Positions 7,294 to 28,959 of a DNA stretch of 64,000 nt are shown here, in pieces. Both the position numbers and the translations under genes were made by a program. The notes under the pieces were generated by a model. That model saw only the letters and a list, made by a program, of their open reading frames with translations, was not told the DNA's origin and ran no database searches. The stretch's first letter is position 1. Each line of letters starts with the position of its first letter. The DNA lies in contig CP169074.1 in assembly GCA_041891055.1 (NCBI GenBank), positions 704,001-768,000 on the forward strand. The letters run 5' to 3'. The stretch comes from Halorutilales archaeon Cl-col2-1 (GTDB lineage: Archaea > Halobacteriota > Halobacteria > Halobacteriales > Afararchaeaceae).

Positions 7294-7355
7294 GAGGCCG
7301 ATGACGAGACTCAGGACTGAACAGGAGGATGATGAACCCTATGAGTGCCGAGGCC
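7294..7355 (+). ncRNA. Box C/D guide sRNA, sR-tMet-like (guides Cm34 of intron-containing elongator pre-tRNA-Met)
   Basis: C box ATGACGA 7301-7307, D' CTGA 7317-7320, C' ATGATGA 7329-7335, D-like CCGA 7348-7351, terminal GGCC stem. D guide ACCCTATGAGTG is complementary to CACUCAUAGGGU; the N+5 rule points at the C of the CAU anticodon. Confidence 0.85.
7340..7353 (+). repeat. att site copy 1 (attL, inside the sRNA)
   Basis: TATGAGTGCCGAGG, identical to 13354-13367. Confidence 0.85.
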
Positions 7356-7813
7356 GACAACTATAGGACCAGCATTCGTCCTATAACTTCCAGAATGTGA
7401 CTTATAGTCGATATAATGCCAAATCCATAATTATCCAACTCACACAGCCACTGGTTGATATTGGTTGGAGATTAGAGACCGAACGACGAACAGCATAACA
7501 TTCAAGTCACGACCGAACTATCTGAATTAATATAGAGAGTTATGGTTGGTTCTTTGCGAGAAGTGCTCAGCGAGAACGAACCAGATACTCTAATAGCTAA
7601 ATTTTTATTCTTGCTAGTTTCTATATTTTCGTTACATAGCGCAGTTACAATCACAGTCTGGTGGCAGTCACTACCATTCTTTACGTTAGTTTTGATATGT
7701 GGACTACTGATCAGTGGGGGGTACGAGGATATCAAATTCACAGTGGTGAGGTTAGTTGGTATGGAGGTCACTAATTCTCAAGAAATCCGTACTACTAAAG
7801 AAGTCCAAGACCT

Positions 7814-9216
7814 CATTCGTCTTCACTTAACGGCGTAATCGAAGGATAGCAGTCGCTTATCGTGGCTCCTTTCCGAGAGGAGTGAGGAGGCGAGTCTGTG
7901 CAAGACAATGCCTCCTCACGACGAATTGAACGTCGGCTTACTACTCTTTTTCCGTCCGAGATGCTGGACGACCACGCCGAGGAGGTCGGCGTGGTCGAAC
8001 GTGACCGGGATCTCCAGATGCCTCCGCTGGTCTGGTCGCTTGTTCTCGGCTTTACTGCTGGTGAAAGCCGGTCGCTCGCTGATTTTCGACGCAGTTACAA
8101 CGCAACCGCCGATGACCCACTCTGTCCAAGTGGCTTCTATCAACGGCTGACGCCGACACTGGCGGAGTACCTGCGCGACCTCGTCGAGCGCGGTCTCGAC
8201 GAGGTCGCTGTCCCTCACACTGTCAGCGACGAGTTCAACCGATTTCGGGACATTATGAGTGCTGACGGCACTGTGCTTCGGTTACACGAGTTCCTTGCCG
8301 ATGCGTACGAAGGCCGCAAGGAGGAGCAGGCTGGAGCACGGCTCCACCTGCTCCACAACATCACCGAGCAAACTATCGACGACTACACGATCACCGACGA
8401 GAAAGACCACGACAGCACACAGTTTGACACCGGCCCGTGGCTCGAAGATCGGTTGGTGCTGTTCGATCAGGCCTACTTCAAGTACCGCCGATTTGCGCTG
8501 ATCGATGAGAACGACGGCTACTTCGTGAGTCGGCTGAAACCCGACGCAAACCCGGAGATCGTCGAGGAATTACGGGAATGGCGTGGCGACGCCATTCCCT
8601 TGGACGGCAAGCAGATTCACGATGTGGTCGATGATCTGTACCGCCAGCACATCGACGTAACGGTCGAAGCGGAGTTCAAACGCGGGCCGTACAACGGGAC
8701 ACGGTCGCTGGATACGAAGCGGTTCCGCGTCGTCGGCGTCCGCAACGAGGACGCCGACGACTACCACCTATATATCACGAATCTGCCTCAAGAAGAGTTC
8801 ACTTCTGAGGATGTAGCAACGGTATATCGGTGTCGGTGGGAAGCTGAGTTGCTGTTTCGGGAGTTAAAGACGCAGTACGAGCTGGATGAGTTCAACACGA
8901 GCAAAGAGCACGTGGTAGAGATTCTGGTGTACGCGGCACTGTTGTCGTTGCTGGTGAGCCGTGTGTTGCTTGATCTGGTCACGGAACACGCCGATAAGGA
9001 TATCGTGTTTCCGCCAGAGCGCTGGGCGGCGACCTTCCGGTCGCACGCCCAGCTTCTCCTGCATCGACTTGGTGAGTACCTCGGCTACTCACCACCGCCG
9101 CTGCTTGATCGGCTCATCGCTGAAGGACAGAAAATCCATCAGGAACGCCAAATCCTACAGGAAAAGCTCGCTACTGTCACGCAACCGACGGTGGAGGCCT
9201 AAACTGAAGACGAATG
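7814..9216 (+). mobile_element. IS4-family ISH8-like insertion sequence (1403 bp)
   Basis: TIRs CATTCGTCTTCA.../...TGAAGACGAATG; 11-bp TSD GTCCAAGACCT at 7803-7813 and 9217-9227. Confidence 0.95.
7898..9202 (+). CDS. IS4-family (ISH8-type) DDE transposase
   Basis: ADGT, FDQAY, YRCRWEAELLFRELK (YREK-like) motifs; intact 434 aa. Confidence 0.92.
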   Translation: MQDNASSRRIERRLTTLFPSEMLDDHAEEVGVVERDRDLQMPPLVWSLVLGFTAGESRSLADFRRSYNATADDPLCPSGFYQRLTPTLAEYLRDLVERGLDEVAVPHTVSDEFNRFRDIMSADGTVLRLHEFLADAYEGRKEEQAGARLHLLHNITEQTIDDYTITDEKDHDSTQFDTGPWLEDRLVLFDQAYFKYRRFALIDENDGYFVSRLKPDANPEIVEELREWRGDAIPLDGKQIHDVVDDLYRQHIDVTVEAEFKRGPYNGTRSLDTKRFRVVGVRNEDADDYHLYITNLPQEEFTSEDVATVYRCRWEAELLFRELKTQYELDEFNTSKEHVVEILVYAALLSLLVSRVLLDLVTEHADKDIVFPPERWAATFRSHAQLLLHRLGEYLGYSPPPLLDRLIAEGQKIHQERQILQEKLATVTQPTVEA

Positions 9217-9343
9217 GTCCAAGACCTATTGAGCGATATCGACACACGTGACTTGGCAAAAATGGATGTGAATGAAGCGGAAGGGAAATTCCAATTCCAG
9301 TTTGATCGGGAGTAAAATATGATACAAGACAAAACCCAGAAAC

Positions 9344-10741
9344 ATGATTGACGAGAGAGAGTTCCGGGGCTATTGGTGGCTCCCTGAAAATCCTGATGAA
9401 AAAGTCGGTGGGATAGCATCCTTCACACCATCCGGTGGTGTTTCCTTAGAGTTGTTCTCTACTCTGAATGAGGATCCAGATTATATGGGTAGTGGCAACG
9501 TCTTTCGGCCTGATTTTATCCATGGAGTTACAACAGAAGGGGAGAGAATCACACTAAAGAACTGTATTCGAGGAAGCTATTCTATGTCTTCTTCGCAGGG
9601 GTCAGGGGTGACCAGTTCCAGCTATCAGGCGATCTCCCTCCTTTCCGGAGCACACTTCACGGAACAAATCAACTTTGACCGATTCCGTATGCAGTTCCCA
9701 CTTCTCACGAAGTGGGCAGGAGTTAGCGGTGTGAATTATTCTGGATCCGTTCTCGAAGGTGGAAAAGTTTCTGCAGGTGACACGTTCGAGATCAATTATG
9801 AATTTCCGGAATCGATCACCGCAGCATTAGACGATGTAGAACTCAAACTGATATTTAATGCTGACTTCAATATGGGGCGAGTTGGTGGTGCATCCATTGA
9901 CGAAGAAGCCTACTTTGACATTATCCCCGATTCGGGAAAGATATCATACGATGAAGCGATTGATTATACTGGAACGCTACAAGATTTTATAACCTTATCA
10001 ACTGGTAAAGAAGTTCAAGCATCCACCCTTATTGGACGATTAGAGCGGGAAAATCAACCGGGATATAATGACATAGAGATATTGTTCTCTACGGGTAGCG
10101 ATCTTAAGCTTCCGGATAGTCTACATCCCTATAAAGCGAATTTTGTCCTTGCAGATATCGTTGATGACTTCTCTGAGGTCATAGGCAATTGGTTCCAACA
10201 CTACGAGGAATTGGAACCTGTTTATAACCTCTATTTCAGCGTTCAGTATAATTCAGAGATGTATCTTCAAAACCAGCTTCTCTCTCTTACACAGGCGATA
10301 GAGACTTATCATAGAAGAGAAATCGGTGGCCAATACCTTTCTGATGATGAATTTGAGGAATTTTATGACGAACTTTGTGAGGTTATCCCTGATCAGTTTG
10401 ATGAGAGTTTCCAAGATCATTTGGAGAAGGGCACATTCAGATATGCGAATGAGTATTCGCTTAGAAAAAGATTGTCTCAATTGGTTTCAGAACAGGAAAA
10501 TATCCTTGATGAGTTGCCTATGAATATTGAGGCAAGCGTGAATAAGATCGTAAATACTCGGAATTATCTGACTCATTATGACGAGGGCATTTCTCCCCGT
10601 GCTGACACGGATGAACTCCATCCTCTAATTCTACGGTTGAGAGCTATCCTTGAAACTGTGCTTCTGTCGAATCTTGGAATACCAGAAGATCAGATTGTAG
10701 AGCGCCTCAAACAGCGCTACTCTGAACTCACAAGATCGTAG
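9344..10741 (+). CDS. ApeA-like protein (ApeA N-terminal domain + HEPN), putative antiviral RNase
   Basis: N-terminal EFRGYWWLP..IHGVTTEGERITL; C-terminal HEPN with QAIE and RNYLTH (RxxxxH). Confidence 0.75.
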   Translation: MIDEREFRGYWWLPENPDEKVGGIASFTPSGGVSLELFSTLNEDPDYMGSGNVFRPDFIHGVTTEGERITLKNCIRGSYSMSSSQGSGVTSSSYQAISLLSGAHFTEQINFDRFRMQFPLLTKWAGVSGVNYSGSVLEGGKVSAGDTFEINYEFPESITAALDDVELKLIFNADFNMGRVGGASIDEEAYFDIIPDSGKISYDEAIDYTGTLQDFITLSTGKEVQASTLIGRLERENQPGYNDIEILFSTGSDLKLPDSLHPYKANFVLADIVDDFSEVIGNWFQHYEELEPVYNLYFSVQYNSEMYLQNQLLSLTQAIETYHRREIGGQYLSDDEFEEFYDELCEVIPDQFDESFQDHLEKGTFRYANEYSLRKRLSQLVSEQENILDELPMNIEASVNKIVNTRNYLTHYDEGISPRADTDELHPLILRLRAILETVLLSNLGIPEDQIVERLKQRYSELTRS

Positions 10742-10802
10742 GGGTTAAGAGCCACAATTCCAAAATTTTGACACAAGATAAATATTCTTCTCTTGCATCT
10801 GA

Positions 10803-11500
10803 TCAATCAACACGAGTATAGATGTCCATAGTCTCACTCTCCGAATCCCCACGGATGTACTGGAGGACGTGCTGTTTCATCTCCTGATTCCGCATCAAGG
10901 TCGTGAACACCGTCCGGAAGGTATGCGGTGTGAACTTCTTGTGGAACCGATCCTCGCCGTCCTCCATAATACCCTCGCTGACTGCCGCCTGACGTACGGC
11001 ACGCTGAACCACGGTCTTCGCCAGCCAGTCATCGCGGATACTCACGAACAGATAGTCCAGCTCTGTATCTCGCCAGATCAGCCTGAACCGCTTGATTGTC
11101 CGAATCGTCTCACGGTCAATCGGCACGACCGTCTGCTTCCCACATTTCCGCTCTCGGAGGCGAACGAATCCTTTGTCGAGCATCAGGTCGTCCATCTTGA
11201 TCTCCAAGGCTTCCTCCAACCGACATTCAGTCTTCGCCAGTAACACGGCGACGGCTTTGTTCCGTGGGTTCGGAATCGCCTTCACGATTTTCTTCGCGTT
11301 CTCCCAGGTCGCACAGTCCGAGCGTTGCCGGATCTGCTTCGGAATCTCCTCCAACACCACACCAGCCGGATTCCCAGTAATGTCGTCGAACCGAGGGCGC
11401 TTCATCGCGTAGCTGAAAAACACAGACAACGATTCGAGGTACCGACGTTTCGTGTTCTGACTGACTCCGCGGTCATCCAGGATACGCAGATTCCTCTCTT
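10803..11500 (-). pseudogene. Tyrosine recombinase/integrase remnant (5'-truncated, degraded)
   Basis: KTECRLEE (R motif), TPHTFR (HxxR), YIRGD...DIYT; frame runs upstream as LRILDDRGVSQNTKRRYLES but there is no full N-terminus. Confidence 0.8.
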
Positions 11501-11559
11501 GAGTGAGGAAAAGTCAGGGTACAGTGTTTAGTCGTTTGCAGTCTAAGTCCTGTTTCACG

Positions 11560-11834
11560 GTTGAACAATGATGATGTCAATGAGGCGATCCGTGAGGAGT
11601 ACGGTCTGAGCGGTGGTGAAGAAGAGGATGAAAGTGTCGAGTGCCATTTCTGTGGGGCGGAAAACAGTGATATCTACTGAATACAGGAGCTGTGGTAGAG
11701 CACTGAGTCTTGAGAATGGGTCGGCGAAAGAGGAGAAGCAAGATGTCTTAGAGCGGCTTAAGCAGCTTGATGATGAAGGAGTCCTGGATAAGCTGGAGGA
11801 TTTAGGAGAGGTTCAGTCCTCTGATGCCCGATGA
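11560..11834 (+). pseudogene. C-terminal zinc-ribbon tail of a second integrase (frameshifted remnant)
   Basis: One frame reads LNNDDVNEAIREEYGL...ECHFCGAEN, the next reads RSCGRALSL...KQDVLERL; resembles haloarchaeal integrase tails. Confidence 0.5.
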
Positions 11835-11858
11835 ATATATAAAATTCGGTCATTAATA

Positions 11859-12539
11859 TTGACCGTGGTCATAATGACAGACCAAACATCGCCAGGTGTC
11901 ATACTTCCTATCCCACTCGGTGAAGAACGAGTGTTCCGCAACCAAGCGATGGAAGACATAACAGAACTCCTATACAGAAACCCACACGAGGAATTCGGCG
12001 TACGACAACTTCGGGATATCACAGAACACGGAGCACAGACAACGGATACAGCGATAAAACTCCTTGAACAGGTCGACCTCATCCAAACCAGGAGAGAGGG
12101 GAACCAGAAGCTTATCAGCATCAACAGAGACCGGATACACAAACCCGATGACCCCATCCTAGAAATACCACAAGAAGAATTCAGAACCCCTGTGAACACC
12201 TTCGTGGATAGATTAGAGAACGATCAAAAGGACAACTTAGTCGGTGTTCTCCTGTTCGGTAGCGTGGCACGAGGCGAGGGCGATAGAGCCAGTGACATCG
12301 ACCTACAGGTGATCGTGGAGGAAGATCTACTGGAATCACGGAGAAGCATCCATGACATCAGACAGGAAGTCGAAGAGACGAGGTTCGGAGGAAACCGTTA
12401 CGAACTACAGGTTCTGGTAGAATCGGTAGACACCGCTGAGGATTACGGAGACAAACTTCACGAGATCTTCTCAGAAGCCATAACGCTCTACCAGACAGAC
12501 AAACTGGACGAACTACGAAAGGTGATTCTGGATGGATAA
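11859..12539 (+). CDS. HTH + minimal nucleotidyltransferase (MNT) antitoxin
   Basis: N-terminal wHTH (GVRQLRDIT); LFGSVARGEGDRASDIDL NTase motif. Confidence 0.85.
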   Translation: MTVVIMTDQTSPGVILPIPLGEERVFRNQAMEDITELLYRNPHEEFGVRQLRDITEHGAQTTDTAIKLLEQVDLIQTRREGNQKLISINRDRIHKPDDPILEIPQEEFRTPVNTFVDRLENDQKDNLVGVLLFGSVARGEGDRASDIDLQVIVEEDLLESRRSIHDIRQEVEETRFGGNRYELQVLVESVDTAEDYGDKLHEIFSEAITLYQTDKLDELRKVILDG

Positions 12540-13026
12540 CAGCCATATTGAAGACAAGTTAGATGAAGTTCAGGAGCTCTTCGACAAGAGACCTGAAGAA
12601 ATAGAAACAGGGTTGGACGTCGACGGTGCTGAGATGCTCCAGTTACGGAAGGCATGTAGACTTCTGGAAGCAGCCAGACATCTGAAACAGGAGAACGGCT
12701 ACTACACCGTTGTCATAGAGGCTTCTTTCGCAGCGATAGAGAGGACGATCCAGTTCTACTTGGTAGACAACAACTTTCTGGATCCGGAGGAATACGTCGA
12801 CCACCGAGAAGTCTATGAGAGAGGTAGCAGAGCAGGACTATACAGCGACGGGTTCAAACAGAAGCTGATAGGTCTCTGGAGAGAAAACCGTTCACGCTCA
12901 TACTACCGAGAAGGCGTAGGCAGCAGAAAAAGAGCCGACAAGATGCTTGAACTCGCAGAAGGAGTACATAGCCACGTGACTCAGCTAGCCGGCAAAAGCC
13001 ACGAATGCATCTGCAACACGGCTTGA
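12532..13026 (+). CDS. HEPN-domain protein (toxin partner of MNT)
   Basis: Overlaps the MNT stop; helical, FAAIER...H...NRSRSYY HEPN-like motif. Confidence 0.7.
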   Translation: MDNSHIEDKLDEVQELFDKRPEEIETGLDVDGAEMLQLRKACRLLEAARHLKQENGYYTVVIEASFAAIERTIQFYLVDNNFLDPEEYVDHREVYERGSRAGLYSDGFKQKLIGLWRENRSRSYYREGVGSRKRADKMLELAEGVHSHVTQLAGKSHECICNTA

Positions 13027-13064
13027 CTACAAATATTTACTACGTGACTACCAAGTACTGCTGT

Positions 13065-13244
13065 ATGAACTGTTTTGCCAGAAGGATTGGAGAAGCTGAA
13101 GAACTCTTGGAAAAGGTAAAGTCCTGGAGCGAGGAAGAGATCGAGGAGTTACCTAAGCTTTACAGGGAAAAAGCAAGGGAATACAGGGGTCTTCTGCCAG
13201 ACCACTGGTCTTTTTCCACTGTTTCTTATCTTCTTCTGACATAG
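13065..13244 (+). CDS. Small hypothetical protein
   Basis: Acidic helical peptide MNCFARRIGEAEELLEKVKSWSEEEIEELP; the 3' part may be degraded. Confidence 0.35.
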   Translation: MNCFARRIGEAEELLEKVKSWSEEEIEELPKLYREKAREYRGLLPDHWSFSTVSYLLLT

Positions 13245-13353
13245 TAGCTTCGACCTCTTTTTTGGCAGGAGACGAGCGGGTCTGTGCCCTCAACCTCGCA
13301 CATCAAACAACTACGCCTTAGCCTTTTTATTACCTACGCAGGCACCGAAAAAA

Positions 13354-13378
13354 TATGAGTGCCGAGGTCTCATCTTTC
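13354..13378 (+). repeat. att site copy 2 (junction of elements A and B)
   Basis: TATGAGTGCCGAGGTCTCATCTTTC; 14 bp shared with 7340-7353 and 23 bp shared with 28937-28959. Confidence 0.9.
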
Positions 13379-13501
13379 TATCCATACATTTCGGGAAAGA
13401 AGTGAACGAACGTCATAGAATCTCGTCTGCTACTCTCTGAGAAAGGACAGTCGTAATCAAAAGGCGAATAGAGTACACTCTGAGGCGTCACATAGGCTTA
13501 G

Positions 13502-13648
13502 TCAGTTCTTTGCTACTTGGGCCGAATAACTCTCCTCCATCCACTCCTCGGTGTGCTTGCGACTGGGGTAAATCGCAACGTAGGTCGTCTCTTCGGATAA
13601 CCCGACCTCGGTCTCCCACTCGGTCTGCTGTGGCTCGTCGTTGCTCAT
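13502..13648 (-). pseudogene. Short acidic ORF remnant (possible RHH-type element gene)
   Basis: MSNDEPQQTEWETEVGLSEETTYVAIYPSRKHTEEW..., 48 aa, next to att. Confidence 0.3.
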
Positions 13649-13785
13649 TCGTGTCTCACAGCAGACACTTACAACTGGACGTTCCTAGGCATTGTGGATA
13701 GATAGGTTCCATGTGTTGACCGTGGTTCTGCTGTCGAACTGATGCTGTCGTAAGAAATAACGGACAATCGTTTGATGAGAGAGTT

Positions 13786-15897
13786 ATGCAAACTCGTACC
13801 GAGACACTTGCCTCCTTGTATCAGGATGGATTCTTCGATATACCGTCATACCAACGTAGCTACTCGTGGGAGGAACCGCAGTTAGCGGACCTCATCGACG
13901 ACCTCCGTTATCTCCCCGAGGAAACCAACCACTTCTTCGGAAACATCATTCTCGACAAGAAGGACGAGCAGTATCAGACAGATAGGGGCAGGCGCTTCGA
14001 TGTCTACGACGTTGTTGACGGTCAACAGCGATTGACGACCGCGCTTATCCTCCTGCACGTCGCCACGCAGTTCGATGACGTGGTCGACGAGACCGTGTCG
14101 GAGGACAATCTGATATTCCCCGTTGACGAGCGCCCCCGTCTGATGCCGCAGGACCAGGACGGGGAGTTCTTTCGGGACAGTCCATTCGGTAGCGCGAGTT
14201 TAGAGTGTGAAACCCCGTCGCAGGAACGTCTCGAATACGTAAAGGAGTATTTCGAGTCGGAATTTGAGGACCTGCCCGTTCGAGAGATATCCGAACGGCT
14301 GCGCTACGACTGCAAAATCAACGTCGTCGAGATAGACAGCGACTCGGAGGCGGCGTCGATTTTCGAGAGCCTGAACGACCGCGGGAAGCCCCTATCATCG
14401 CTCGACAAAACGAAGAGCTTCCTGATGTATATGGACGACCGCTCCAGCAATCAGGGTGCTCTTGAGACGAAAATCAAGCAACGGTTCGGGAGCATCTACC
14501 GCGAGCTGTTCGTCCTCTCGAACGGGCATGACAGAGTGAGCGATTTCGACGAAGACAGTGTGCAACGGTTCCACTGGGGAATCTACGACGGATACGATTC
14601 TGACGAGTACTTCAGCAGTCTCGATACGCTCAAAGACAGACTCCGAGAGCGATACCGTAACGGCGAGTACGATACCGTTCAGGACGAAATTGACGAGTAC
14701 ACGCTGAATCTTCGTGAAGCAGCGTCGGCGTTCGCTGCACTGTTCAATCCTTCACAGCGTCCCGACGAAGTCGAATCCGCACTGAAACGTCTACTCGCAC
14801 TCGGGAGGGTTGCGAACGTTCTCCCCGTCCTGATTGCGGCACAGATGGAGTACGGTGACGATGAACCGGATAAGATGGCGGATATCATTCGCGCCTGCGA
14901 GACACTCGTCTTCCGCGTCTACGCAACCGATGGCAGGCGGGCCGATACGGGACGAGGTAGGTTAGTTCGCCTCGCTCATTCGATTCATGCAGACGATTCG
15001 TATCTGTTCGAGGACGTACTCAATCGTCTCGACTCGATTACCCGCATCTACACCGACGATGACCGCTTTGAGCGCAACCTTCGTGACCCTGACTTCTACG
15101 AGTCAATGTCGAGCCAGGACATTCGCTACTTGTTCTACCACTACGGGCAGAACCTAGACATCGAGATACGCGAAGACGTACAGCGCGACCTCGAACAAAT
15201 CCTCTCTACCTCATTCGAGGTCGAACATATCCTCGCTCGAAAACTCCCAGAGGAAGACATCCCGGAGGACCTGCGCGAGGAGTTTGACGACCACGTCCAT
15301 CGTCTCGGGAACCTCACCGTTGCGAGCGAATACTGGAACAAGAACTACGGCAACCTCCCGTTCGAGCAAAAGAAGATTGCTCCCGAGGGACGCGAAGCAG
15401 AATACAAATCATCGAACCTGCGAGTGCAGCAGAGCCTTGCCGACTATGACGAGTTCGGACGGGCAGAGATTGAGGAGCGGGAACAGAAGATAGTCGACTT
15501 TGCACTCGAAGAGTGGGGGATTGCGTCTGAGCCACAACCGTCCGGGGGGTCGAGTACCGACGAGGGCTCTGATGAGGTAGAGTACGAGAGTCTTCCGGAC
15601 AGTTTCTTCCGGCGGTTGACGAACCGACAGGAGGCGTTCATTCGAATCCTGCTCGATAACGGGAACTGGATGATGAACGAGGATGTCCGTCAGCAGATGG
15701 AGGACGACTATGACCTTGCAACGGGCGGTGGTCAAGCGATATCCGGCATCCTCTCGGGGTTCACCCGGAAATACAGCGAGGACTTCACGTATCGTCTCAT
15801 CGATTACGAATGGATGGGCGACCAGATGCAGTATCGTCTGAATCCCGACTCGGGATACATTGACGAACTACGTGAGCGACTAGAAAAGAATGCCTGA
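13786..15897 (+). CDS. GmrSD-type restriction protein (DUF262 + DUF1524/HNH) with extra C-terminal domain
   Basis: IPSYQRSYSW, DGQQRLTT, FESLNDRG; EHI...HRLGNL...N HNH motif. Confidence 0.9.
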   Translation: MQTRTETLASLYQDGFFDIPSYQRSYSWEEPQLADLIDDLRYLPEETNHFFGNIILDKKDEQYQTDRGRRFDVYDVVDGQQRLTTALILLHVATQFDDVVDETVSEDNLIFPVDERPRLMPQDQDGEFFRDSPFGSASLECETPSQERLEYVKEYFESEFEDLPVREISERLRYDCKINVVEIDSDSEAASIFESLNDRGKPLSSLDKTKSFLMYMDDRSSNQGALETKIKQRFGSIYRELFVLSNGHDRVSDFDEDSVQRFHWGIYDGYDSDEYFSSLDTLKDRLRERYRNGEYDTVQDEIDEYTLNLREAASAFAALFNPSQRPDEVESALKRLLALGRVANVLPVLIAAQMEYGDDEPDKMADIIRACETLVFRVYATDGRRADTGRGRLVRLAHSIHADDSYLFEDVLNRLDSITRIYTDDDRFERNLRDPDFYESMSSQDIRYLFYHYGQNLDIEIREDVQRDLEQILSTSFEVEHILARKLPEEDIPEDLREEFDDHVHRLGNLTVASEYWNKNYGNLPFEQKKIAPEGREAEYKSSNLRVQQSLADYDEFGRAEIEEREQKIVDFALEEWGIASEPQPSGGSSTDEGSDEVEYESLPDSFFRRLTNRQEAFIRILLDNGNWMMNEDVRQQMEDDYDLATGGGQAISGILSGFTRKYSEDFTYRLIDYEWMGDQMQYRLNPDSGYIDELRERLEKNA

Positions 15898-20989: not shown

Positions 20990-21138
20990 AGTTACAGAGA
21001 TTTAACTCCCTAACTGGTTAAACATTTCCTGCGAGACACTCCGGGGAGCTATCAAGCTCTCTAATGACCAGACAAGTGCAATTCTCGGGGGTCGGTATGT
21101 CGGTCAATTTAAGGAAAAGGGACGGATATTCCACTAGT

Positions 21139-21510
21139 ATGCCTGCGGAAATTCTGGCTGCTGACGACGACGAAGATATCAGAGAAATGATCGATGTTAG
21201 TCTCAGTGGGGATTTTGACGTCGAGACTGTAAAAGATGGCCGAGAGGCATGGGAGTACTTAGAACAGTCCCCGGGTTCACTACCGAAAGCGGTCATTCTC
21301 GACGTCATGATGCCAGAGATGGACGGGTTTTCGGTTCTGGATCGCATCCGGGAGAACGACGAGATGCAGGATATTCAGGTTATTATACTGACATCTCGGA
21401 GTCGGGAGGAGGACATCGTTCGAGCGCTCGAGGCAGGCGCGGACGATTTCCTGGCGAAGCCCTTCAATAAATCCGAACTGTACGGACGTGTACAGCAAAC
21501 TCTCGAGTAA
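21139..21510 (+). CDS. Single-domain response regulator (REC)
   Basis: ADDD, LDVMMP, LTS, AKPF motifs. Confidence 0.92.
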   Translation: MPAEILAADDDEDIREMIDVSLSGDFDVETVKDGREAWEYLEQSPGSLPKAVILDVMMPEMDGFSVLDRIRENDEMQDIQVIILTSRSREEDIVRALEAGADDFLAKPFNKSELYGRVQQTLE

Positions 21511-21563
21511 GCGACCGTACAGAATTGAAACAGTAAAGGTGCATTAGCTGGTAGATAGTCACA

Positions 21564-22730
21564 ATGTGGGTGGCCACACTAGTCGCCGTGATCGGTCTCT
21601 TGAGCGTCGGGGCCATCACTCAGTTCACCGGGTATCGTATGGGAGGGTCAATCACCATTCCCGTTCTTGCCGTGTACTCTTTGAAGAACTTCGTCATGCT
21701 CCCCGTTTTTGTGTTGAGCGCGGCAGCCGCGTACGTCGGCCTGTGGATCCTCCGTCGTCGAACATTGATATTTGGTCGTGACGAGCTCATCGCAGCGATG
21801 GTCATCGGCACAACCGTTCCAGTAGTCACGCTCTTTTTCATCCTGCAATTAGGACTTGAGGTGGGAGTGGTTGCGTTTCTGGGAAGTATTCTCCCTGGAC
21901 TCGCAGCGTACAATTACCATCGAATCAAGCCGGAGTATCGCCGAAACGACCTCTTGGCGAGTATCGGGTTGTTCGTTACCCTCACTGCGCTCGGTTGGGT
22001 ACTGGTTTCCAATGGATATGCGCGTGAATTTGGTGCGCTGACGCCCCCAGTCCTCTTCTCTTCGACTGCAGACGTCGCTAGTTTCAAAGGTGTTGCAGTG
22101 TCACTCGATCCCGAATCTGTCATACTCCCTCGAGAAATCGTGGCCGGACTGTTCGCTGGTGGGCTCGTTCTCTCTGAACGGCTCCGGGATCGGTTCGGTG
22201 TTCGTGTCGGGATCGTCGGTGCGGTCCTCCTCGCGATTTATGCGCTAGCGAGCTATTGGCTCGTGATTCTGTACGTCATTTTGCTTGCGCTATCGTTCGG
22301 CTTCATCCAGTTGTCGAACTACCTCACACTCCGGTACGGACGAGTCCTTCTCGGAGTGACTGTCGCAGTCGCGATCTTCGCTACAGTATCGCTGACGTTT
22401 GTCTTACCGATTGAGCGAGGACTGTCGGCGTTCTTTACTGCGATTTTGGCAGGTGTCGGGGCGTACAACGCGCATGCGTCAGCACCATTCGAGCGCCGCC
22501 TCGTCGTCCCGCTTCAGATCGTGGTCTTTGTCCCCGCTTTGATCGTCGCTCGACTGTTCAGTGCTCTCCAACCTCGTGGGTTTCCACAAGAGCTGACGTT
22601 GCCTGTCCTGGGGATTGCAGCGGTTCTCTGGGTGGCTGCCCTGGGTGTCGCGTACTGGTATACTGTGTCACCCCCGGGTGAAGATGAGGTTCTCTCTGCG
22701 TCGGTTCTCTCTGAAGGGGGTGAAACATGA
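21564..22730 (+). CDS. capC: Poly-gamma-glutamate synthesis protein CapC/PgsC-like (duplicated domain)
   Basis: Multi-TM; GYRMGG..IPVLAVY, IFGR, GSILPGLAAY motifs repeated in the second half (YGR). Confidence 0.75.
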   Translation: MWVATLVAVIGLLSVGAITQFTGYRMGGSITIPVLAVYSLKNFVMLPVFVLSAAAAYVGLWILRRRTLIFGRDELIAAMVIGTTVPVVTLFFILQLGLEVGVVAFLGSILPGLAAYNYHRIKPEYRRNDLLASIGLFVTLTALGWVLVSNGYAREFGALTPPVLFSSTADVASFKGVAVSLDPESVILPREIVAGLFAGGLVLSERLRDRFGVRVGIVGAVLLAIYALASYWLVILYVILLALSFGFIQLSNYLTLRYGRVLLGVTVAVAIFATVSLTFVLPIERGLSAFFTAILAGVGAYNAHASAPFERRLVVPLQIVVFVPALIVARLFSALQPRGFPQELTLPVLGIAAVLWVAALGVAYWYTVSPPGEDEVLSASVLSEGGET

Positions 22731-24367
22731 GTCGGACTGCCTTCGAGATCTACGGCCGTGGGTTCGGCTGGTCGTGGCGTCTTAGGGGCCCAGCGGAGGT
22801 ACTAGCAACCGGCAGCCGCCACTACGACACATCCCGAGCAGCACGCGAAGCAATTGATCTCGTTCGCGCCGCTGTTACAGAACTATCGGGGAACGAAGAG
22901 TCCTTCCCAGACACCGACGTCGACGCCCCCGACATCATCGTCGAACGAGAGGCCACACCGTCGGGAGAACTCCCGGAAGAACGAAACAACTGGGTCTGGC
23001 GGCTCCAAACTGCAAACGGGGTACTGGGACATAGTGCCGATCGCTTCCCGACGGAAGTGGCAGCACAGTCCGCGGCGGACCAGTTCCTCGACTATGCGGC
23101 GGGGGCGCTGCCGATGTTCTTGGTTGGGGCGGAGTACGAGTGGAAGACCGGCCCGAAGCCAATCGAAGTCGGCTCGTCGAGTTTGACAGGACTGGTCAGT
23201 GAAATAACGAGAGGTATTCGACATCGTAAGGTCCTCGATCAGATCGATACCCAGATTGTCGTCTCGGGGACTCGCGGTAAATCCTCAACCACCCAACGGC
23301 TCGACGACGTCTTCAACCGCCGAGGGTACGACACGCTCACGAAGATCACCGGCAACCATCCACTACTGATCCACAACGGCGAGGTCCATCCTATCGAACG
23401 ACGGGGGCCTCGAACGACGCTCTACGAGAATATCAGTCTCATCGCTGAGTTCGTCCCCGAACTCGATGCGTACGAGCCGGACGACGTCGCTATCTTCGAG
23501 AATCAGGGTATCACAGAATACACGACCCGGCTGTTCAACCAGCGTCTGACCGATCCGGACATCATCGTGTTAACAAACGTCCGTCAGGACCACACAGATA
23601 CCCTTGGAAAGACCAGGACAGACCTTGCACGTTCGTTTGCGCGGTCGGTCCCAGCGGGAACACACGTTGTGAGCGGCGAGCAACACCCGGTGTTGCACGA
23701 ATATATGCAAAAAGAGATCGAACGCCGCGGAGGGACTATCGAGCAGGTTGATATTCCCGACGAACACGAAGGGCTAATCGGTTCTGAAACGATCCACGCA
23801 GTCAATGTGGTGTTAGATGTTGTTGGCGAACCGCCACTTCCAGCCGAGGAGATCGAATCGTTCCTCAGTGCGATCCAACCAACGTGGATAGAACTTGAAG
23901 ACGGACTCATCTTCAACGCTGCCGAGGTGAACGACGTCGAAAGTACTGAGATGGTTCGACGGGTGCTCGTCGATGACGAATGTATCACCCCGTTCGTGTA
24001 CCTCCGAAGAGACCGGCGGGGGCGTACAGCGTCATTTGCTCAATATATCGAGTTGCTATTCGAGCGAGAGTTAATCGATGAAGCTCACATCGGTGGGGCT
24101 AACACACGCGCATTCGCCGAAAACGTCGATGTTCCAACCAAGTGCCACAGTCAAAATGCGGACCCAGAGCAGGTTCTAACTGAACTGTTCACCGATGGCC
24201 GACCGGTCATCCTCATGGGTAACACGGTGGACGAGTTTATGCGTGAGATGCAGGCGTCGATTGAACAACGAGTGAAAGAGAAAAGACAGGCTGCCTCGGC
24301 AAGCGAAGCTGTTGACATTTCTGAACAGGGGAGCGCGGAAGCGACTAAACCAAAAGATCACGAATAA
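22727..24367 (+). CDS. capB: CapB/PgsB-like Mur ligase with tandem N-terminal DUF1508/YegP-like domains
   Basis: SGTRGKSST, KITG, TNVRQDH, NAAEVNDVES, RRDR, LMGN; two W-x-WRL repeats at the N-terminus. Confidence 0.8.
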   Translation: MSRTAFEIYGRGFGWSWRLRGPAEVLATGSRHYDTSRAAREAIDLVRAAVTELSGNEESFPDTDVDAPDIIVEREATPSGELPEERNNWVWRLQTANGVLGHSADRFPTEVAAQSAADQFLDYAAGALPMFLVGAEYEWKTGPKPIEVGSSSLTGLVSEITRGIRHRKVLDQIDTQIVVSGTRGKSSTTQRLDDVFNRRGYDTLTKITGNHPLLIHNGEVHPIERRGPRTTLYENISLIAEFVPELDAYEPDDVAIFENQGITEYTTRLFNQRLTDPDIIVLTNVRQDHTDTLGKTRTDLARSFARSVPAGTHVVSGEQHPVLHEYMQKEIERRGGTIEQVDIPDEHEGLIGSETIHAVNVVLDVVGEPPLPAEEIESFLSAIQPTWIELEDGLIFNAAEVNDVESTEMVRRVLVDDECITPFVYLRRDRRGRTASFAQYIELLFERELIDEAHIGGANTRAFAENVDVPTKCHSQNADPEQVLTELFTDGRPVILMGNTVDEFMREMQASIEQRVKEKRQAASASEAVDISEQGSAEATKPKDHE

Positions 24368-24446
24368 AACGTCAGCTTCTGTAAGAAGCGGGCCTTTTCG
24401 TTAGATGTAGACGTGTTCTTGAGGGGGCCAGAACGATTGTCCGGTA

Positions 24447-26120
24447 GTGGCCATTACTACTGAATCTCGGAGAACCGTCTTTCGACAAATTGCACGACTG
24501 TCGTACGTTGAGTGGCCAGCGTACGATTCGACACCGTTGTACGACCGCACCTCACTTACCGGATTAGAGTCGGATGTCCGGATCGTCTCAGGAGCTTGGT
24601 TCACGCACCATGAGCACATCTCTGTTGAGCAGTTCGTCTCCGAACTTCCGCTGGCCTACTTCCAATTCGAGGCCCACGACTGCTACGAGGATCCGACACA
24701 CTACGAGATGGACACCCTGTTTCGCGTGTTCGTTCTGAAAGAACTTCACGGATGGGAGCACGAAACAGCACTCTACGAGTACCTCGAAAGTCATCCGGAA
24801 CTTTGCGAGCGGCTTGGGCTGGAGACAGTGCCTGACCAATCGACACTCTGGCGCAGTTGGCACACACGCTTCACTGATGAGTTTCGCGAGACGATCCAGA
24901 AAGCGGCTCGAACGATCCTCATCAAAGCGCAGAACGCCGACGTCACCGTCCCCCGCGAACCGGAGCAGATTCTCCCAGCTCGTGATGACGTGGACGAATC
25001 GGTTCCAGACGATCGAGCCATTCTGGACAACGCCGATAGAGTCACCAAGCACGTCAGCCGTGTCGTCTTTCCCGCGTTCTCTCTGGATCGTGGCGACAGC
25101 TGTGAGATCCACGAGAACGCCTACTGGGACTTACAAACGTACCTCGGACTTCGCGAGCGGCTGGCTGCAAACGAAGGTGCTCGTAGTTTCCTCTACGAGT
25201 CGACTCGGGATCGGACACCGCTGGGGCACGCCCATCGCGAGCAGATTCGGGACCTCTCGATTGAACAGATTCGAGCGATGTACCGGCAGGCCATCACTCG
25301 GCTCCTGAACGAAGTTGCGGAGACAGAGCAGTTCTTTCGAGCCGGAGTTGTCGCAATCGATATTACCGAAGCTGACCCGTTCACCGGCGATAGAACGGGC
25401 TACGAAGACGAGATCATCGGGACGAAAGAGAAGACTGACGAGTACGCCTATCAGTGGGCGACGGTCCAGTTAGTCGGCAATGCCGTTCCGCTCGTGCTTG
25501 ACGCACGACCGGTTCGACGAGGAGAGTCACGCAAGGAAATCGTCGAGGACTTGCTGGATTCGGCTGAGGACCTCGTTCACGTCGATAACGTGCTGATGGA
25601 CCGGGAGTTCGATAGCCAGCACGTTCTGGAGATGATCAGCCAGTGCGGGCTCTCATACGTCGTCCCGAAACGGATGCAGACCAGCGAGAAAGCCCAGGCC
25701 AAGCGATTGCTCCAGCGCGATCAAGACCGGTATGAAACCGACCGGAAGCTCCACCTTGGCAAGAACGAGTGGCACGAGAAGACGCTAATCTACCGCCGGA
25801 AAGAGGAATCCGAGCACGACGATCACCGGCAGTATTCGGTGTTCATGACGAATCGGGGGAGCGGACACCTTACGGAGTACGGCTACCGGTGGGAAATCGA
25901 GAGCGGCTACAGATCGATCAAACGGTTCATGGCTGCCACCACGTCGAAGGATTTCGGGCTGCGATTCTTCTACTTCGCGTTCGCGTGTCTGCTGTACTCG
26001 ATCTGGCGGGCTGTCGATCTGCTCGTGCAGGTTGAGTTGACTGGTGAGTACGAGCACTCGCCGATGGTGACGGCAGATAACACACTGACACTGCTGAAGA
26101 AGGAGACTGGAATCGGATAG
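24447..26120 (+). CDS. Long IS4-superfamily/ISH3-like DDE transposase
   Basis: AIDIT, MDREF, YRWEIESGYRSIK triad; N-terminal VPDQSTLWR domain. Confidence 0.85.
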   Translation: MAITTESRRTVFRQIARLSYVEWPAYDSTPLYDRTSLTGLESDVRIVSGAWFTHHEHISVEQFVSELPLAYFQFEAHDCYEDPTHYEMDTLFRVFVLKELHGWEHETALYEYLESHPELCERLGLETVPDQSTLWRSWHTRFTDEFRETIQKAARTILIKAQNADVTVPREPEQILPARDDVDESVPDDRAILDNADRVTKHVSRVVFPAFSLDRGDSCEIHENAYWDLQTYLGLRERLAANEGARSFLYESTRDRTPLGHAHREQIRDLSIEQIRAMYRQAITRLLNEVAETEQFFRAGVVAIDITEADPFTGDRTGYEDEIIGTKEKTDEYAYQWATVQLVGNAVPLVLDARPVRRGESRKEIVEDLLDSAEDLVHVDNVLMDREFDSQHVLEMISQCGLSYVVPKRMQTSEKAQAKRLLQRDQDRYETDRKLHLGKNEWHEKTLIYRRKEESEHDDHRQYSVFMTNRGSGHLTEYGYRWEIESGYRSIKRFMAATTSKDFGLRFFYFAFACLLYSIWRAVDLLVQVELTGEYEHSPMVTADNTLTLLKKETGIG

Positions 26121-26364
26121 AGAGACACTCAGTCTGGGTTAGCGCGCTGTCTGAGTGGCTACACTGTTGGATGTCTCGAAAATTCGCCCTTACGGTTGTA
26201 AATGTGACAAGAATGCCGCTTGGAGAGAGAATTGAGGTAGTTTCTGCTGACTAACTCGGCAAAATCCACGCATTACAACCCTGCTATACCTGTTGTAGTC
26301 TCAACTTCCCTATTGTTGAACAAATCCATGATGAGGTCGAATAACGACGATACTGACAGTGATG

Positions 26365-27093: not shown

Positions 27094-27146
27094 ATGGTAG
27101 AACGTGCGAACCTTGATACTTCGAGGTTTGGAACAATCGTAGCAAT

Positions 27147-28157
27147 ATGGTTGAGCAAGCGTTCATGGTTCGCGCCGGGAACGATAACGAATTAGTCGAG
27201 GAATTCGAGTCGCGTTCTCTGGTCGCGGTTGGATGGGAGGACCTGGGGGACGTATCCGATGTCCGTTCATACGAGGAGATGAAAGCCCGATTCAATTCGA
27301 CCGACGAGTATTCCGAGCACAATAGCCGGCGTATCGCCCAGAGCGCGGGGCAGGTGAATCGATTTGCGTTTGAGATGGAAGAGGGGCATCTGGTTCTGAG
27401 CTACGACAAGACGGAACGCGAGTATCTCATCGGTGAGGTCATGAGTGACTACGAGTGGAAACCGAGCGACCACCCGCCAGGATATCCACACGTCAGGCGT
27501 GTCGACTGGAAGGATACTGTCTCTCGTGACGAGTTCACGACCTCGACGAAGAACACACTCGGGAGTACGCTAACGGTGTTCTCGCTCGACGACTGTATTG
27601 ATGAAATCACGGGCGTTCTAAGCGGGGAGACGCCCGATGAGAGCGAGGAGGAAGAGGACACCGTCCCATTCGTCGACGAGGTAGAGAACCAAGCAGACGA
27701 ACTCATCTCTGACATTCTGGCGAACATGAACCCGTTCGTCTTCGAGGAGTTGGTCGCCGCAGTCCTACGAGCGATGGGATACCACGCGAAGAAGACACGG
27801 GACAGCCAAGACCGAGGCATTGACGTGGTCGCTCATCCAGACTCGTTAGAGTTCGAATCGCCATACATCAAAGCGCAGGTCAAGAGGCAGCAATCGAAAG
27901 TGGGTTCTCCCGAGATGCAACAGTTCAGCGGAGCACTCGGGAATGGGGAACGAGGTTTGTTCGTGTCTACTGGAGGATACACCAGCGGAGCAAGGAGCGA
28001 GGCACAGAACGCCGAACAGCGGGTTACACTCATCGACCGGGACGAATTCATTGACCTCCTGATTCAGGACTACGACGACCTCGAATCCGAGTATCAGGCG
28101 ACGGTGCCGTTGAAACAGGTCTACATTCACTCGCAGGATCCTCCTCTTGAGGAATAA
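27147..28157 (+). CDS. mrr: Mrr-family restriction endonuclease with N-terminal PUA/EVE-like domain
   Basis: MVRAG...VGW N-domain; FEELVA, DRGID, AQVK, GLFVSTGGY. Confidence 0.85.
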   Translation: MVEQAFMVRAGNDNELVEEFESRSLVAVGWEDLGDVSDVRSYEEMKARFNSTDEYSEHNSRRIAQSAGQVNRFAFEMEEGHLVLSYDKTEREYLIGEVMSDYEWKPSDHPPGYPHVRRVDWKDTVSRDEFTTSTKNTLGSTLTVFSLDDCIDEITGVLSGETPDESEEEEDTVPFVDEVENQADELISDILANMNPFVFEELVAAVLRAMGYHAKKTRDSQDRGIDVVAHPDSLEFESPYIKAQVKRQQSKVGSPEMQQFSGALGNGERGLFVSTGGYTSGARSEAQNAEQRVTLIDRDEFIDLLIQDYDDLESEYQATVPLKQVYIHSQDPPLEE

Positions 28158-28186
28158 GATAATTCGACTATGATCGACGATAGCAG

Positions 28187-28834
28187 CTAAAAGAACTCGT
28201 TCATGATTCGGGTTCGCTCAGGAGAATCGATATTGTTGAAATGTTCTGTGTCAAGATGTTGTCCTGCATTCCATAAGTTCCCTAGGTTTGACGAGACTTC
28301 GTACTGGTCAACTGTATCTACATCTACGACGAATACTGATATCTGACTATTCGGAGTCACAATTAGTATGCCCTCCTCAATGCCTGTATCGTCTGGAAAT
28401 CCAGATATGTGATATGCCCCTTGTCGAAAGTCCTCGCCGGTCATCCCGAACTCGAATGCGATAAGAGAGTCGCCCTGTAGTTCCCCGAAAGGATTGAGAT
28501 ACTTAAACAGAGTATGAAGACGTCCTTGGTTTTCTTTGATTCTTACTCGGTCAGGGGTCAAGCGTGCTGAATAGCCCGTACCCGTGAAGTCGTCTAACTC
28601 ATATGCTCGAGACCCACCAATTACCTCGTCTATTTTCTGCTCTCGTTCAAATCGTGAATCAAGAACAGAATTCCGATGAGAAATATACTGAAGAACCAAA
28701 GACACCGTCGCAACAAAAATTGGTGCTGCTAGAAGTGCGGTTTCTGCACTAATACTTGTGAGACCTGAAAACAGCCCTGAGACGAATTGAAATATCTGCT
28801 CACAGACCATACATATGAAGAAAGCACAACCCAA
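28187..28834 (-). CDS. Hypothetical membrane-anchored protein
   Basis: Long ORF in AT-rich sequence with an N-terminal hydrophobic helix; start uncertain. Confidence 0.55.
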   Translation of the reverse strand: MGCAFFICMVCEQIFQFVSGLFSGLTSISAETALLAAPIFVATVSLVLQYISHRNSVLDSRFEREQKIDEVIGGSRAYELDDFTGTGYSARLTPDRVRIKENQGRLHTLFKYLNPFGELQGDSLIAFEFGMTGEDFRQGAYHISGFPDDTGIEEGILIVTPNSQISVFVVDVDTVDQYEVSSNLGNLWNAGQHLDTEHFNNIDSPERTRIMNEFF

Positions 28835-28936
28835 CTCTACTTACCATTGTCTCTCTCGATGGGACAAACAGAATTACGGACTGAGCGTACTCTATAGCCG
28901 CGCTAAACACATTCACTATGGATAGATTGTGAGTCG

Positions 28937-28959
28937 TGAGTGCCGAGGTCTCATCTTTC
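28937..28959 (+). repeat. att site copy 3 (attR; original sRNA 3' end)
   Basis: TGAGTGCCGAGGTCTCATCTTTC, identical to 13356-13378; core genome resumes at 28966. Confidence 0.9.

Follow-up and report, generated by a model that had tools for sequence, protein, structure and literature searches.

The 3' end of a conserved box C/D guide RNA gene as a probable attachment site for a clade of XerA-like integrases in haloarchaea

RNA genes other than tRNA genes serve as integration targets in bacteria, where the tmRNA gene ssrA and the ryeA/ryeB small-RNA locus of Salmonella are examples, and in streptococci integrase-less elements flanked by attachment (att) sites, known as cis-mobilizable elements (CIMEs), accrete in tandem beside integrative and conjugative elements (ICEs). 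Archaeal viruses and plasmids with tyrosine integrases insert into tRNA genes and only rarely into protein-coding genes or intergenic DNA. Among the haloarchaea, Haloferax gibbonsii LR2-5 has been described to harbour three integrative elements that target tRNA genes and encode XerC/D-like integrases (PMC7921747). The pleolipovirus SNJ2 targets tRNA-Met, and its integrase is co-transcribed with two accessory proteins, Orf2 and Orf3, which are needed for integration (PMC5861418). A 2021 review of archaeal tyrosine recombinases names, in its section 19, only intergenic and protein-coding targets besides tRNA genes, and a term search of its text for sRNA or snoRNA gave no occurrence (PMC8371274). 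Here we describe a stretch of 64,000 nucleotides from Halorutilales archaeon Cl-col2-1 (positions 704,001 to 768,000 of the forward strand of contig CP169074.1, assembly GCA_041891055.1), hereafter called the window, in which the gene of the box C/D guide small RNA (sRNA) sR-tMet is followed by accessory genes and by further copies of the 12-mer core TGAGTGCCGAGG found at its 3' end. We suggest, with a probability of about 0.87, that the end of sR-tMet is the chromosomal attachment site (attB) of a dedicated clade of XerA-like tyrosine integrases, and that the window holds a decayed tandem array of three element remnants. The suggestion is built on the repeats and their uniqueness in the genome, the identity of the sRNA and its target, a presence/absence polymorphism in a related genome, conserved element arms, and the association of the integrase clade with the core in different genera.

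As far as the accessible parts of the two haloarchaeal reports tell, the locus resembles both systems. Like the H. gibbonsii LR2-5 elements, it involves a tyrosine integrase, end repeats copied from the 3' portion of a conserved small RNA gene that is restored at one end, and proviral or plasmid-like cargo. Unlike those elements, the target is a box C/D guide sRNA gene and not a tRNA gene, and the integrase operon mostly lies at the element end opposite to the intact RNA gene and reads towards it, with four loci showing the opposite arrangement. With SNJ2 it shares a haloarchaeal host, a 14-bp core that corresponds to the 3' region of a small RNA gene, an apparently co-transcribed accessory gene and conserved arms, whereas SNJ2 has two accessory proteins and targets tRNA-Met, and the elements described here encode one partner of 163-177 amino acids (aa) that belongs to no known family. 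The bacterial ssrA, ryeA/ryeB and CIME cases are similar in having a conserved small RNA gene as attB and decayed integrase-less modules in tandem att-flanked arrays, and differ in domain of life, RNA class and integrase lineage. In kind, the process appears to be ordinary site-specific integration into a conserved small RNA gene, while the target class and the breadth of the dedicated clade appear to be new. Searches of open full text, in which "C/D" is unmatchable and which do not extend to supplements and subscription journals, returned no report of a C/D sRNA gene as integration target. No archaeal paper was found in the full-text literature by the core string or its reverse complement.

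A preliminary description of the window, made from the sequence alone, had placed the first copy of the repeat across the D guide and D box of a C/D sRNA. This was borne out, as copy 1 is the last 14 nt of a gene that matches the Rfam family RF02163, sR-tMet (Table 1). An E-value scan of positions 7200-7450 aligned the gene to the full length of the model (1-72) with 49.3 bits and an E-value of 9e-9. The gathering score of the family is 50, and a scan of the whole window at the gathering threshold listed nothing, this sRNA included. The shortfall comes from an internal segment of 7 nt instead of 19 nt, and the sRNA of the related genome G001, introduced below, scores equally. The gene encodes the C box GAUGACGA, the D' box CUGA, the C' box GAUGAUGA and the D guide CCCUAUGAGUG, followed by CCGA, which is the variant D box of the family, and its ends form a terminal stem, GGCC/GGCC. 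The D guide (CCCTATGAGTG) pairs perfectly with CACTCATAGGG of the intron-containing elongator tRNA-Met(CAU) gene at C1:941738-941844. The perfect complementarity to the pre-tRNA-Met extends over 11 nt (C1:941768), and C34 occupies the fifth pair counted from the D box. By the N+5 rule, the methylated nucleotide is the one that pairs with the fifth guide nucleotide upstream of the D box. A table entry of PMC4033218 assigns sR-tMet to Cm34.

The sRNA gene gave one match per genome in 37 of the 41 related genomes of the order that were compared, and in 27 of 27 high-quality genomes; it is single copy in the source genome. The exact 12-mer was present in 349 of 401 sampled genomes of the order, which makes the end of sR-tMet a highly conserved single-copy target. 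In genomes where the site is occupied sR-tMet still scores 53-80 bits, so the sRNA is preserved by integration. A TTTATAT box at window 7262-7275, about 25 bp upstream of the 5' end of the sRNA, would fit an archaeal promoter of sR-tMet.

Searching the window for the 12-mer core revealed exact matches at 7342, 13356 and 28937, each on the + strand. With one mismatch allowed the count stayed at three, where 0.42 would be expected and where 100 shuffled sequences never gave as many. In the full assembly (4 contigs, 2,064,627 bases) the core occurs only in these three copies. Copies 1 and 2 have 14 bp in common (TATGAGTGCCGAGG) and copies 2 and 3 a 23-mer (TGAGTGCCGAGGTCTCATCTTTC), so that the search and direct reading agree with the preliminary description on both the number of copies and the shared lengths. 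A repeat common throughout the genome and unlinked to integrases, which that description had named as the outcome that would speak against attachment sites, is not what was found: there are three genome copies only, and the core lies near 34 of 37 integrase loci (see below). Neither the window nor the rest of the genome revealed additional degenerate copies of the att site or of the arms, and the window has no tRNA genes. The 11-mer GAGTGCCGAGG, which is the 12-mer minus its first T, has 10 genome copies, where about one would be expected for a random 11-mer; seven of these lie off the locus with unrelated flanks, and no copy off the locus has element arms. The excess probably stems from codon or composition bias.

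Island content at the repeats was compared with G001, the sole genome of the same genus in the comparison and hereafter called the congener. It has the same order of PRPP synthase, SAM hydroxide adenosyltransferase (SAM_HAT), NIF3, sRNA and YchF genes, with a gap of only 1.9 kb between the sRNA and ychF. In blastn alignments its positions 872-5892 correspond to window 2353-7355 (96% identity), 6098-6171 and 6168-7822 to window 11492-11565 and 11725-13381 (96-98%), and 7801-20000 to window 28941-41108 (88%). Window 13382-28940, a stretch of 15.6 kb that we call island 2, is therefore absent from the congener, and the alignments break at the repeat. The congener does have the left flank of copy 2, joined directly there to the right flank of copy 3, on the ychF side, via one repeat-like site (TATGGTTGCCGAGGTCTCATCTTTC). 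Window 7356-11491, which includes the IS4 transposase, ApeA and integrase fragment, is likewise absent, with 205 unrelated bases in its place, and the segment called module A below is all that separates the sRNA from ychF. The preliminary description had proposed looking in relatives for an empty nif3-sRNA-ychF site. The congener supplies this in part, since island 2 and 7356-11491 are missing, but 1.9 kb are left and the site is not fully empty. In more distant families NIF3 is sometimes found near the sRNA, and ychF is not. Furthermore, a 1537-nt metagenome contig in each of two runs from one study (X3 and X4) joins 13351 to 28941 with TATGGT between them; these contigs carry the G001-type allele and are perhaps not independent of G001. 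The sequencing runs consisted of contigs only, with a best share of the stretch's sampled words of 0.21, and coverage gaps in island 2 are uninformative.

Two further differences between these genomes were seen. Identity to the congener is 96% left of the array (2353-7355) and 88% right of it (28941-41108), where proteins range from 72% to 97%; the gap may be due to recombination, or the flank may have been transferred along with the island. About 160 bp at window 11566-11724 are missing from the otherwise 96-98% identical segment of the congener.

The polymorphism could also have arisen with the same site and enzyme through a different history, in which island 2 was ancestral to both genomes and was lost in the congener by excision or by recombination between the 23-bp repeats. 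Island 2 lacks an integrase of its own, which makes a recent autonomous insertion hard to picture; perfect 23-bp repeats would permit such a deletion, and the congener site has two core substitutions, as in an unselected scar. On the other hand, a pre-insertion site fits equally well if the congener sequence (TATGGTTGCC...) is the older one, and integrase-less att-flanked modules can be moved in trans by a related integrase; that of the neighbouring element, here called B-type, was formerly intact. The genus is represented by two genomes only, which leaves no outgroup to choose between the histories. We consider loss in the congener a serious possibility, if the less probable of the two histories.

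The enzyme is represented in the window by remnants of its operon, namely an integrase pseudogene and a stub of the partner gene, and the preliminary description was right to place tyrosine-recombinase remnants inside the islands. The 208-aa open reading frame (ORF) at 10803-11429 holds the catalytic domain only of a tyrosine recombinase (Pfam PF00589, Phage_integrase, E 1e-20). The window fragment aligns at 86-87% identity with residues 63-310 of an intact integrase of 310 aa (L037:8630-9562), and a further comparison with this enzyme gave 86-89%. The intact gene is located in a 7.85-kb element of Halorussus halobius (L037/L056) bounded by sR-tMet and a 14-bp repeat of the sRNA end. This intact integrase matches PF00589 (E 1e-24) and SAM-like N-terminal domains. 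Residues R155, K180, H254, R257 and Y289 are invariant in three intact relatives and are presumably the catalytic ones. The best curated model is that of archaeal XerA (NCBIfam NF040815), with 204.8 bits, which is under the cut-off of 220. The clade resembles archaeal XerA in length and in its two-domain layout (SAM-like N-terminal plus catalytic). Unlike XerA it is patchily distributed (5 of 41 genomes) and found in variable DNA flanked by att sites, as befits an integrase and not a resolvase. A separate recombinase of the genome, at C1:1836657, is only 25-31% identical to the clade and may be the XerA of this organism.

The five clade-bearing genomes are the source genome (G000), G010, G012, G019 and G027 (E-value of at most 1e-30, 50-87% identity). 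In all five the integrase is flanked on one side by sR-tMet and on the other by a core repeat of the same strand. The intervals from sRNA to repeat in the four other genomes are 3.8, 10.8, 86.8 and 94.8 kb. In the two longest (G012:C1:496983-591855, 94.8 kb; G027:C6:105869-192746, 86.8 kb) the integrase-proximal repeat is far from the sRNA, which points either to a very large integrated element or to a long array. Two TGA stops interrupt the integrase of G027.

A scan of one genome per species, covering 185,579 species, gave 37 clade loci in about 20 named haloarchaeal genera, including Halorussus, Halorubrum, Halapricum, Halovenus, Salarchaeum, Halobellus, Halorientalis, Haloarcula, Haloferax, Halarchaeum, Natronorubrum, Natrinema, Halosimplex, Halopiger and Halomicrococcus. 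Of these 37 loci, 34 have the core within 10 kb on either side of the integrase when one mismatch is allowed, whereas by our arithmetic about 0.09 per locus would be expected by chance. In 21 of the 37 the distance from the core to the integrase start downstream of it is 580-640 bp, which places the core just past the partner gene. For four of those 21 (L074, L076, L081 and L085) the upstream copy is the sRNA itself, on the integrase strand, and both orientations of the site relative to the operon thus exist. At these four loci the intact sRNA is immediately followed, on its own strand, by the operon of partner and integrase, and the core is inverted relative to the operon. The preliminary description had proposed a search of haloarchaeal genomes and viruses for attP copies next to intact integrases. 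Copies of the core were found near integrases of the clade at 34 of 37 haloarchaeal loci, and IMG/VR viral contigs gave neither a relative of the integrase nor the B-type P arm plus core. Its central proposal, that a C/D sRNA serves as attB, is well supported by the congener lacking island 2 at the repeat, by these 34 loci, and by the arrangement common to all five clade-bearing genomes.

A partner ORF of 163-177 aa overlaps the integrase gene on its upstream side in 32 of the 33 loci processed. Searches of Pfam, NCBIfam and PDB profiles gave nothing significant for this protein. An AlphaFold2 model built with 12 homologues (mean pLDDT 75, pTM 0.30) begins with two helices, continues with a long helix in the centre and ends in a helical unit with a hairpin at the C-terminus. 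Foldseek found no match to the model in the PDB at an E-value of at most 0.001, the best being 0.88; among its weak matches the N-terminus was Arc-repressor-like and the C-terminus winged-helix-like. Our guess from the model is that the partner might be a DNA-binding accessory protein, comparable to Orf2/Orf3 of SNJ2 or to an excisionase.

How much sequence the end of the sRNA shares with the repeats downstream of it was examined in 34 comparisons. The common block measures 12-22 bp, is most frequently exactly TGAGTGCCGAGGCC (16 of 34), and in 31 of 34 starts at the T of TGAGTG. The arms on the element side are of types common to several families and genera. One of these, the C-type group, was seen in Haloarcula, Salarchaeum, Halorubrum, Halopiger and others, and the 40 nt before copy 3 are identical in elements of Haloarcula argentinensis (G019/L082) and Salarchaeum (L061), with close variants in other genera. 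In the C-type attP rebuilt from both ends, ATGGATAG and CTATCCAT form an inverted pair around the core, and are possible recombinase-binding sites. A recognisable element arm directly follows the sRNA in at least 10 of the 36 sR-tMet loci examined, a count made partly by eye.

These boundaries bear on the alternative that the repeats are not att sites, being either partial sRNA duplications or part of a generic hotspot of insertion sequence (IS) activity or homologous recombination, with the integrase as a bystander. Two IS transposases do lie inside the islands, the island interiors are near genomic GC content, and the unequal divergence of the flanks from the congener (96% left, 88% right) is a hint of regional recombination. 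However, the downstream copies never hold the 5' three-quarters of the sRNA and share one left boundary base in all but three comparisons, and the repeats are flanked by arms conserved across genera. Furthermore, the clade occurs with the core in all but three of its loci, at a fixed distance in 21 of them, and the island 2 polymorphism breaks exactly at the repeat. This alternative is very improbable.

The preliminary description had also read the core as the reverse complement of the anticodon arm of tRNA-Met, and had speculated that an integrase once targeting that arm moved to the guide RNA that mirrors it. Part of this is correct. The first 6-8 nt (TA/TGAGTG) are complementary to the arm, and the rest (CCGAGGCC) is D box and terminal stem. 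At its 5' side the core reads TGAGTG (TATGAGTG in copies 1 and 2), which necessarily complements CACTCA(TA) of the elongator tRNA-Met gene, and SNJ2 provides an example of a haloarchaeal integrase that targets tRNA-Met (PMC5861418). The switch itself is not supported. Only 6 of the 14 core positions lie in the guide, the other eight being D box and stem, and a full alignment matches 9 of 14. The left boundary of the shared block falls sharply at the T of TGAGTG, so that the core is mostly D box and stem. The next-best recombinases in the 41 genomes are only 31-39% identical to the clade, and the best family model is XerA. As no recombinase falls between 39% and 50% identity there is no informative sister group, and none specific to tRNA-Met is visible. 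At the 37 integrase loci, tRNA genes are absent both from the att position and from about 0.9 kb upstream of the integrase, the nearest being tRNA-Arg at the weakest, partial locus (L092). According to the accessible part of the SNJ2 report, that virus uses the 3'-distal part of tRNA-Met and not the anticodon (PMC5861418). An origin from an anticodon-targeting integrase is thus hardly credible.

Integration at the sRNA end by the dedicated clade would proceed as follows. The attB would be the last 14 nt of sR-tMet, in which the D guide ends and is followed by the D box and by the 3' strand of the terminal stem. The integrases would be those of the XerA-like clade, of about 310 aa, co-transcribed with the 163-177-aa partner and carried on haloarchaeal integrative elements. 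If the attP of the element holds the same 14 nt as attB, exchange within these 14 bp, presumably catalysed by the clade integrase, would rebuild an intact sRNA at attL and leave a 14-nt partial copy at attR, as in tRNA-targeting elements. Repeated integration into either core copy would then lead to tandem arrays.

For the window, the preliminary description had proposed two independent elements. More than one element in tandem is indeed indicated, but we count three modules, a B-type element, module A and a C-type element. Module A would be an old MNT/HEPN remnant, common to the source genome and the congener. Module B (7356-11491) would be a B-type element that was crippled by an IS4 insertion and a deletion and is cut off within its integrase; the deletion would have taken the N-terminus of the integrase, the partner gene, the attR of B and the left arm of A. 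Module C (13368-28936) would be a 15.6-kb C-type island whose replication and integration module was deleted down to a 40-residue partner stub. The element of Haloarcula argentinensis also encodes an integrase and a Prim-Pol replicase, and island 2 has C-type arms and the stub, so that island 2 looks like a C-type element from which the integration and replication module was deleted. The order of events was probably serial integration at the sRNA end or its partial copies, after which the IS insertion and deletions would have frozen the array. What remains would be a fixed defence island (ApeA, MNT/HEPN, GmrSD, AspBHI-like and Mrr) with a kinase/regulator pair and poly-gamma-glutamate-like genes.

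Several observations weigh against integration at sR-tMet by this clade. The evidence for it is wholly comparative, with no recombination seen, and both integrase-operon remnants in the window are non-functional, so that movement of these islands by this enzyme is not demonstrable. No fully empty nif3-sRNA-ychF site was found among the genomes examined. Copies 2 and 3 have GAGGTC where the sRNA end has GAGGCC, and the repeat of the congener has two bases changed inside the core (TGGTTGCC); the direction of the island 2 polymorphism may therefore be either gain or loss. Three of the 37 integrase loci are without the core, one being cut by a contig end, one having only 2.3 kb upstream and one being itself a partial match. 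No free circular attP form was found. The B-type pattern of P arm, core and P' arm (P-O-P') had no matches in metagenome contigs, and the B-type P arm plus core had none in IMG/VR viral contigs. The C-type P-O-P' junction was present in five metagenome contigs, of which at least three are tandem chromosomal arrays, as L095, L097 and L098 carry further att copies or the sRNA. In the other two (L094 and L096) the junction lies at a contig end, and none of the five gives proof of a free attP. In addition, a Natrinema salinisoli plasmid (NZ_CP084471.1, 113.8 kb), the one match in PLSDB, has a 71% identical integrase with no perfect core within 9 kb of it.

Among mobile elements more widely, no relatives of the integrase were found in IMG/VR viral contigs. 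A phage collection gave 79 matches, all below 60% identity, and the 25 listed were from bacterial phages at 23.5-29.0%. On the Natrinema plasmid, 7.8 kb downstream of the integrase and on the opposite strand (L093:17714(-)), there is a sequence resembling a C' box, D guide and D box with two core mismatches. This 3' half of an sRNA-like sequence may be a captured chromosomal junction.

If sR-tMet is the attachment site of this clade, a new class of RNA gene is added to the known sites, and the logic of an invariant single-copy RNA target that is rebuilt on integration extends beyond tRNA and tmRNA. Haloarchaeal integrases in about 20 named genera would then use a guide-RNA gene in the role that normally falls to tRNA genes. 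This would account for integration sites that look intergenic and would be missed by island finders based on tRNA genes. The sR-tMet locus can be flagged as a minable site of defence-island accumulation, the identical 12-mer being so widespread in the order, and the clade provides haloarchaeal genetics with a candidate system for site-specific integration whose potential host range is very broad. More speculatively, and on present evidence doubtful, the locus might act across the Halobacteriales as an integron-like platform that gathers defence genes. The XerA-like integrase and its partner, themselves borne by larger plasmid-like elements encoding Prim-Pol, could act in trans to capture, stack and exchange integrase-less modules. 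Should this be true, the locus would help to predict new archaeal defence genes in general and would serve as an almost universal docking site for haloarchaeal genetic tools.

The features of the locus are collected in Table 1.

Table 1. Features in and around the putative island array downstream of sR-tMet (window coordinates; G001 is the congener)
Feature	Position	Strand	Evidence or remarks
NIF3/DUF34 gene, conserved left flank	6493..7254	+	Pfam PF01784 E 1e-59; 96% identical, same position in G001
Box C/D sRNA sR-tMet, intact	7296..7355	+	Rfam RF02163
Core copy 1 (putative attL), TGAGTGCCGAGGCC	7342..7355	+	final 14 nt of sR-tMet gene
P' arm of B-type element	7356..7400	+	~85% identical to arm after sR-tMet in Halorussus halobius L037/L056; unique in genome
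IS4-family transposase, secondary insertion	7898..9202	+	NCBIfam NF033592 287 bits; Pfam DDE_Tnp_1
ApeA-type HEPN defence protein	9344..10741	+	Pfam ApeA_NTD1, HEPN_Apea; PADLOC PDC-S58, Cas13-ApeA
Tyrosine integrase pseudogene	10755..11498	-	without residues 1-62 of 310; one in-frame TGA
Older remnant, module A	11492..13355	+	96-98% identical to G001 L031:6098-7822; PADLOC PDC-M05A/S09
Module A: nucleotidyltransferase	11859..12539	+	Pfam Polbeta/NTP_transf_2
Module A: HEPN-like protein	12532..13026	+	weak HEPN match, E 0.049
Module A: 79-aa ORF	13005..13244	+	
Core copy 2 and extension, TGAGTGCCGAGGTCTCATCTTTC	13356..13378	+	putative attR of module A and attL of island 2
P' arm of C-type element, contains CTATCCAT	13368..13420	+	near-identical arms after sR-tMet in G019, G010, G020, G031 and several named species
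Integrase-partner stub, N-terminal 40 residues	13529..13648	-	85% identical to residues 1-40 of 177-aa partner L036:5349-5882 (Haloarcula argentinensis)
GmrSD-type modification-dependent nuclease	13786..15897	+	Pfam GmrSD_N, GmrSD_C; PADLOC HEC-06/Orf5/SspE-like
AspBHI-like / Mrr-cat restriction enzyme	15890..17074	+	Pfam RE_AspBHI_N, Mrr_cat; PADLOC mREase_II
PAS/GAF hybrid histidine kinase, 1301 aa, non-defence cargo	17084..20989	-	Pfam
Response regulator, non-defence cargo	21064..21510	+	Pfam
CapC-like gene, non-defence cargo	21564..22730	+	Pfam
PgsB/Mur-ligase-like gene, non-defence cargo	22727..24367	+	Pfam
ISH3-like DDE transposase	24447..26120	+	Pfam DDE_Tnp_1/DUF772; NCBIfam ISH3 102.6 bits vs cut-off 225
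Mrr-type restriction endonuclease	27147..28157	+	Pfam Mrr_cat E 7e-28; PADLOC PDC-S02 E 3e-111
215-aa ORF, no family	28187..28834	-	no match in Pfam, NCBIfam, PADLOC
P arm of C-type element, contains ATGGATAG, inverted partner of CTATCCAT	28870..28936	+	
Core copy 3 and extension	28937..28959	+	putative attR of island 2; right flank runs into ychF as in G001
YchF/Obg-like GTPase, conserved right flank	28966..30153	-	Pfam YGR210-like_G4, MMR_HSR1, TGS; 97% identical in G001

Annotation with Pfam, NCBIfam and PADLOC agreed with the preliminary description that the accessory genes lie between the core copies and that housekeeping genes resume right outside, with PRPP synthase, SAM_HAT and NIF3 on the left and the YchF/Obg-like GTPase on the right. 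GC content is 0.43-0.51 at about 9-14 kb and 0.46 at 28-29 kb, compared with about 0.55-0.58 outside. In module A a very weak tblastn match to the N-terminus of the integrase partner was seen at 13159-13242 on the - strand (30 residues, 33% identity, E 0.31). It is immediately left of copy 2, at the expected place of the partner gene of module A, and may be a decayed partner stub or a chance match. In island 2 the partner stub is divergent from the GmrSD gene, which is the same layout as in the element of G019 (Haloarcula argentinensis), and the GmrSD of the window is 85.5% identical to the one encoded there. The cargo at 17084..24367 gave 86 bits with NCBIfam TIGR04012, under the cut-off of that model, and all of it is absent from the congener. 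A fragment matching PADLOC PDC-M57B is also present between core copies 2 and 3. A 2608-nt metagenome contig (run X2) covers 19209-20997 and then 24446-25106, skipping the response regulator and the CapC- and PgsB-like genes. The skipped stretch may be a further insertion, or the contig may reflect another arrangement in another organism.

In several genomes from different genera very short modules of 0.9-1.6 kb, each with a single gene or a gene pair, were found between sR-tMet and an end repeat, in a cassette-like manner (L045:2713-3634, L048:2704-3607, L042:17082-18085, L046:2614-4242, L047:2606-4111 and L054:1716-2998). Their cargo includes a pair encoding 83-aa RHH-like and 156-aa PIN-like proteins, both under the Pfam cut-offs, and an S66 LD-carboxypeptidase, which is a solid match. 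In G028 an Mrr nuclease that is 87.6% identical to the one at window 27147-28157 is located alone between sR-tMet and the end repeat.

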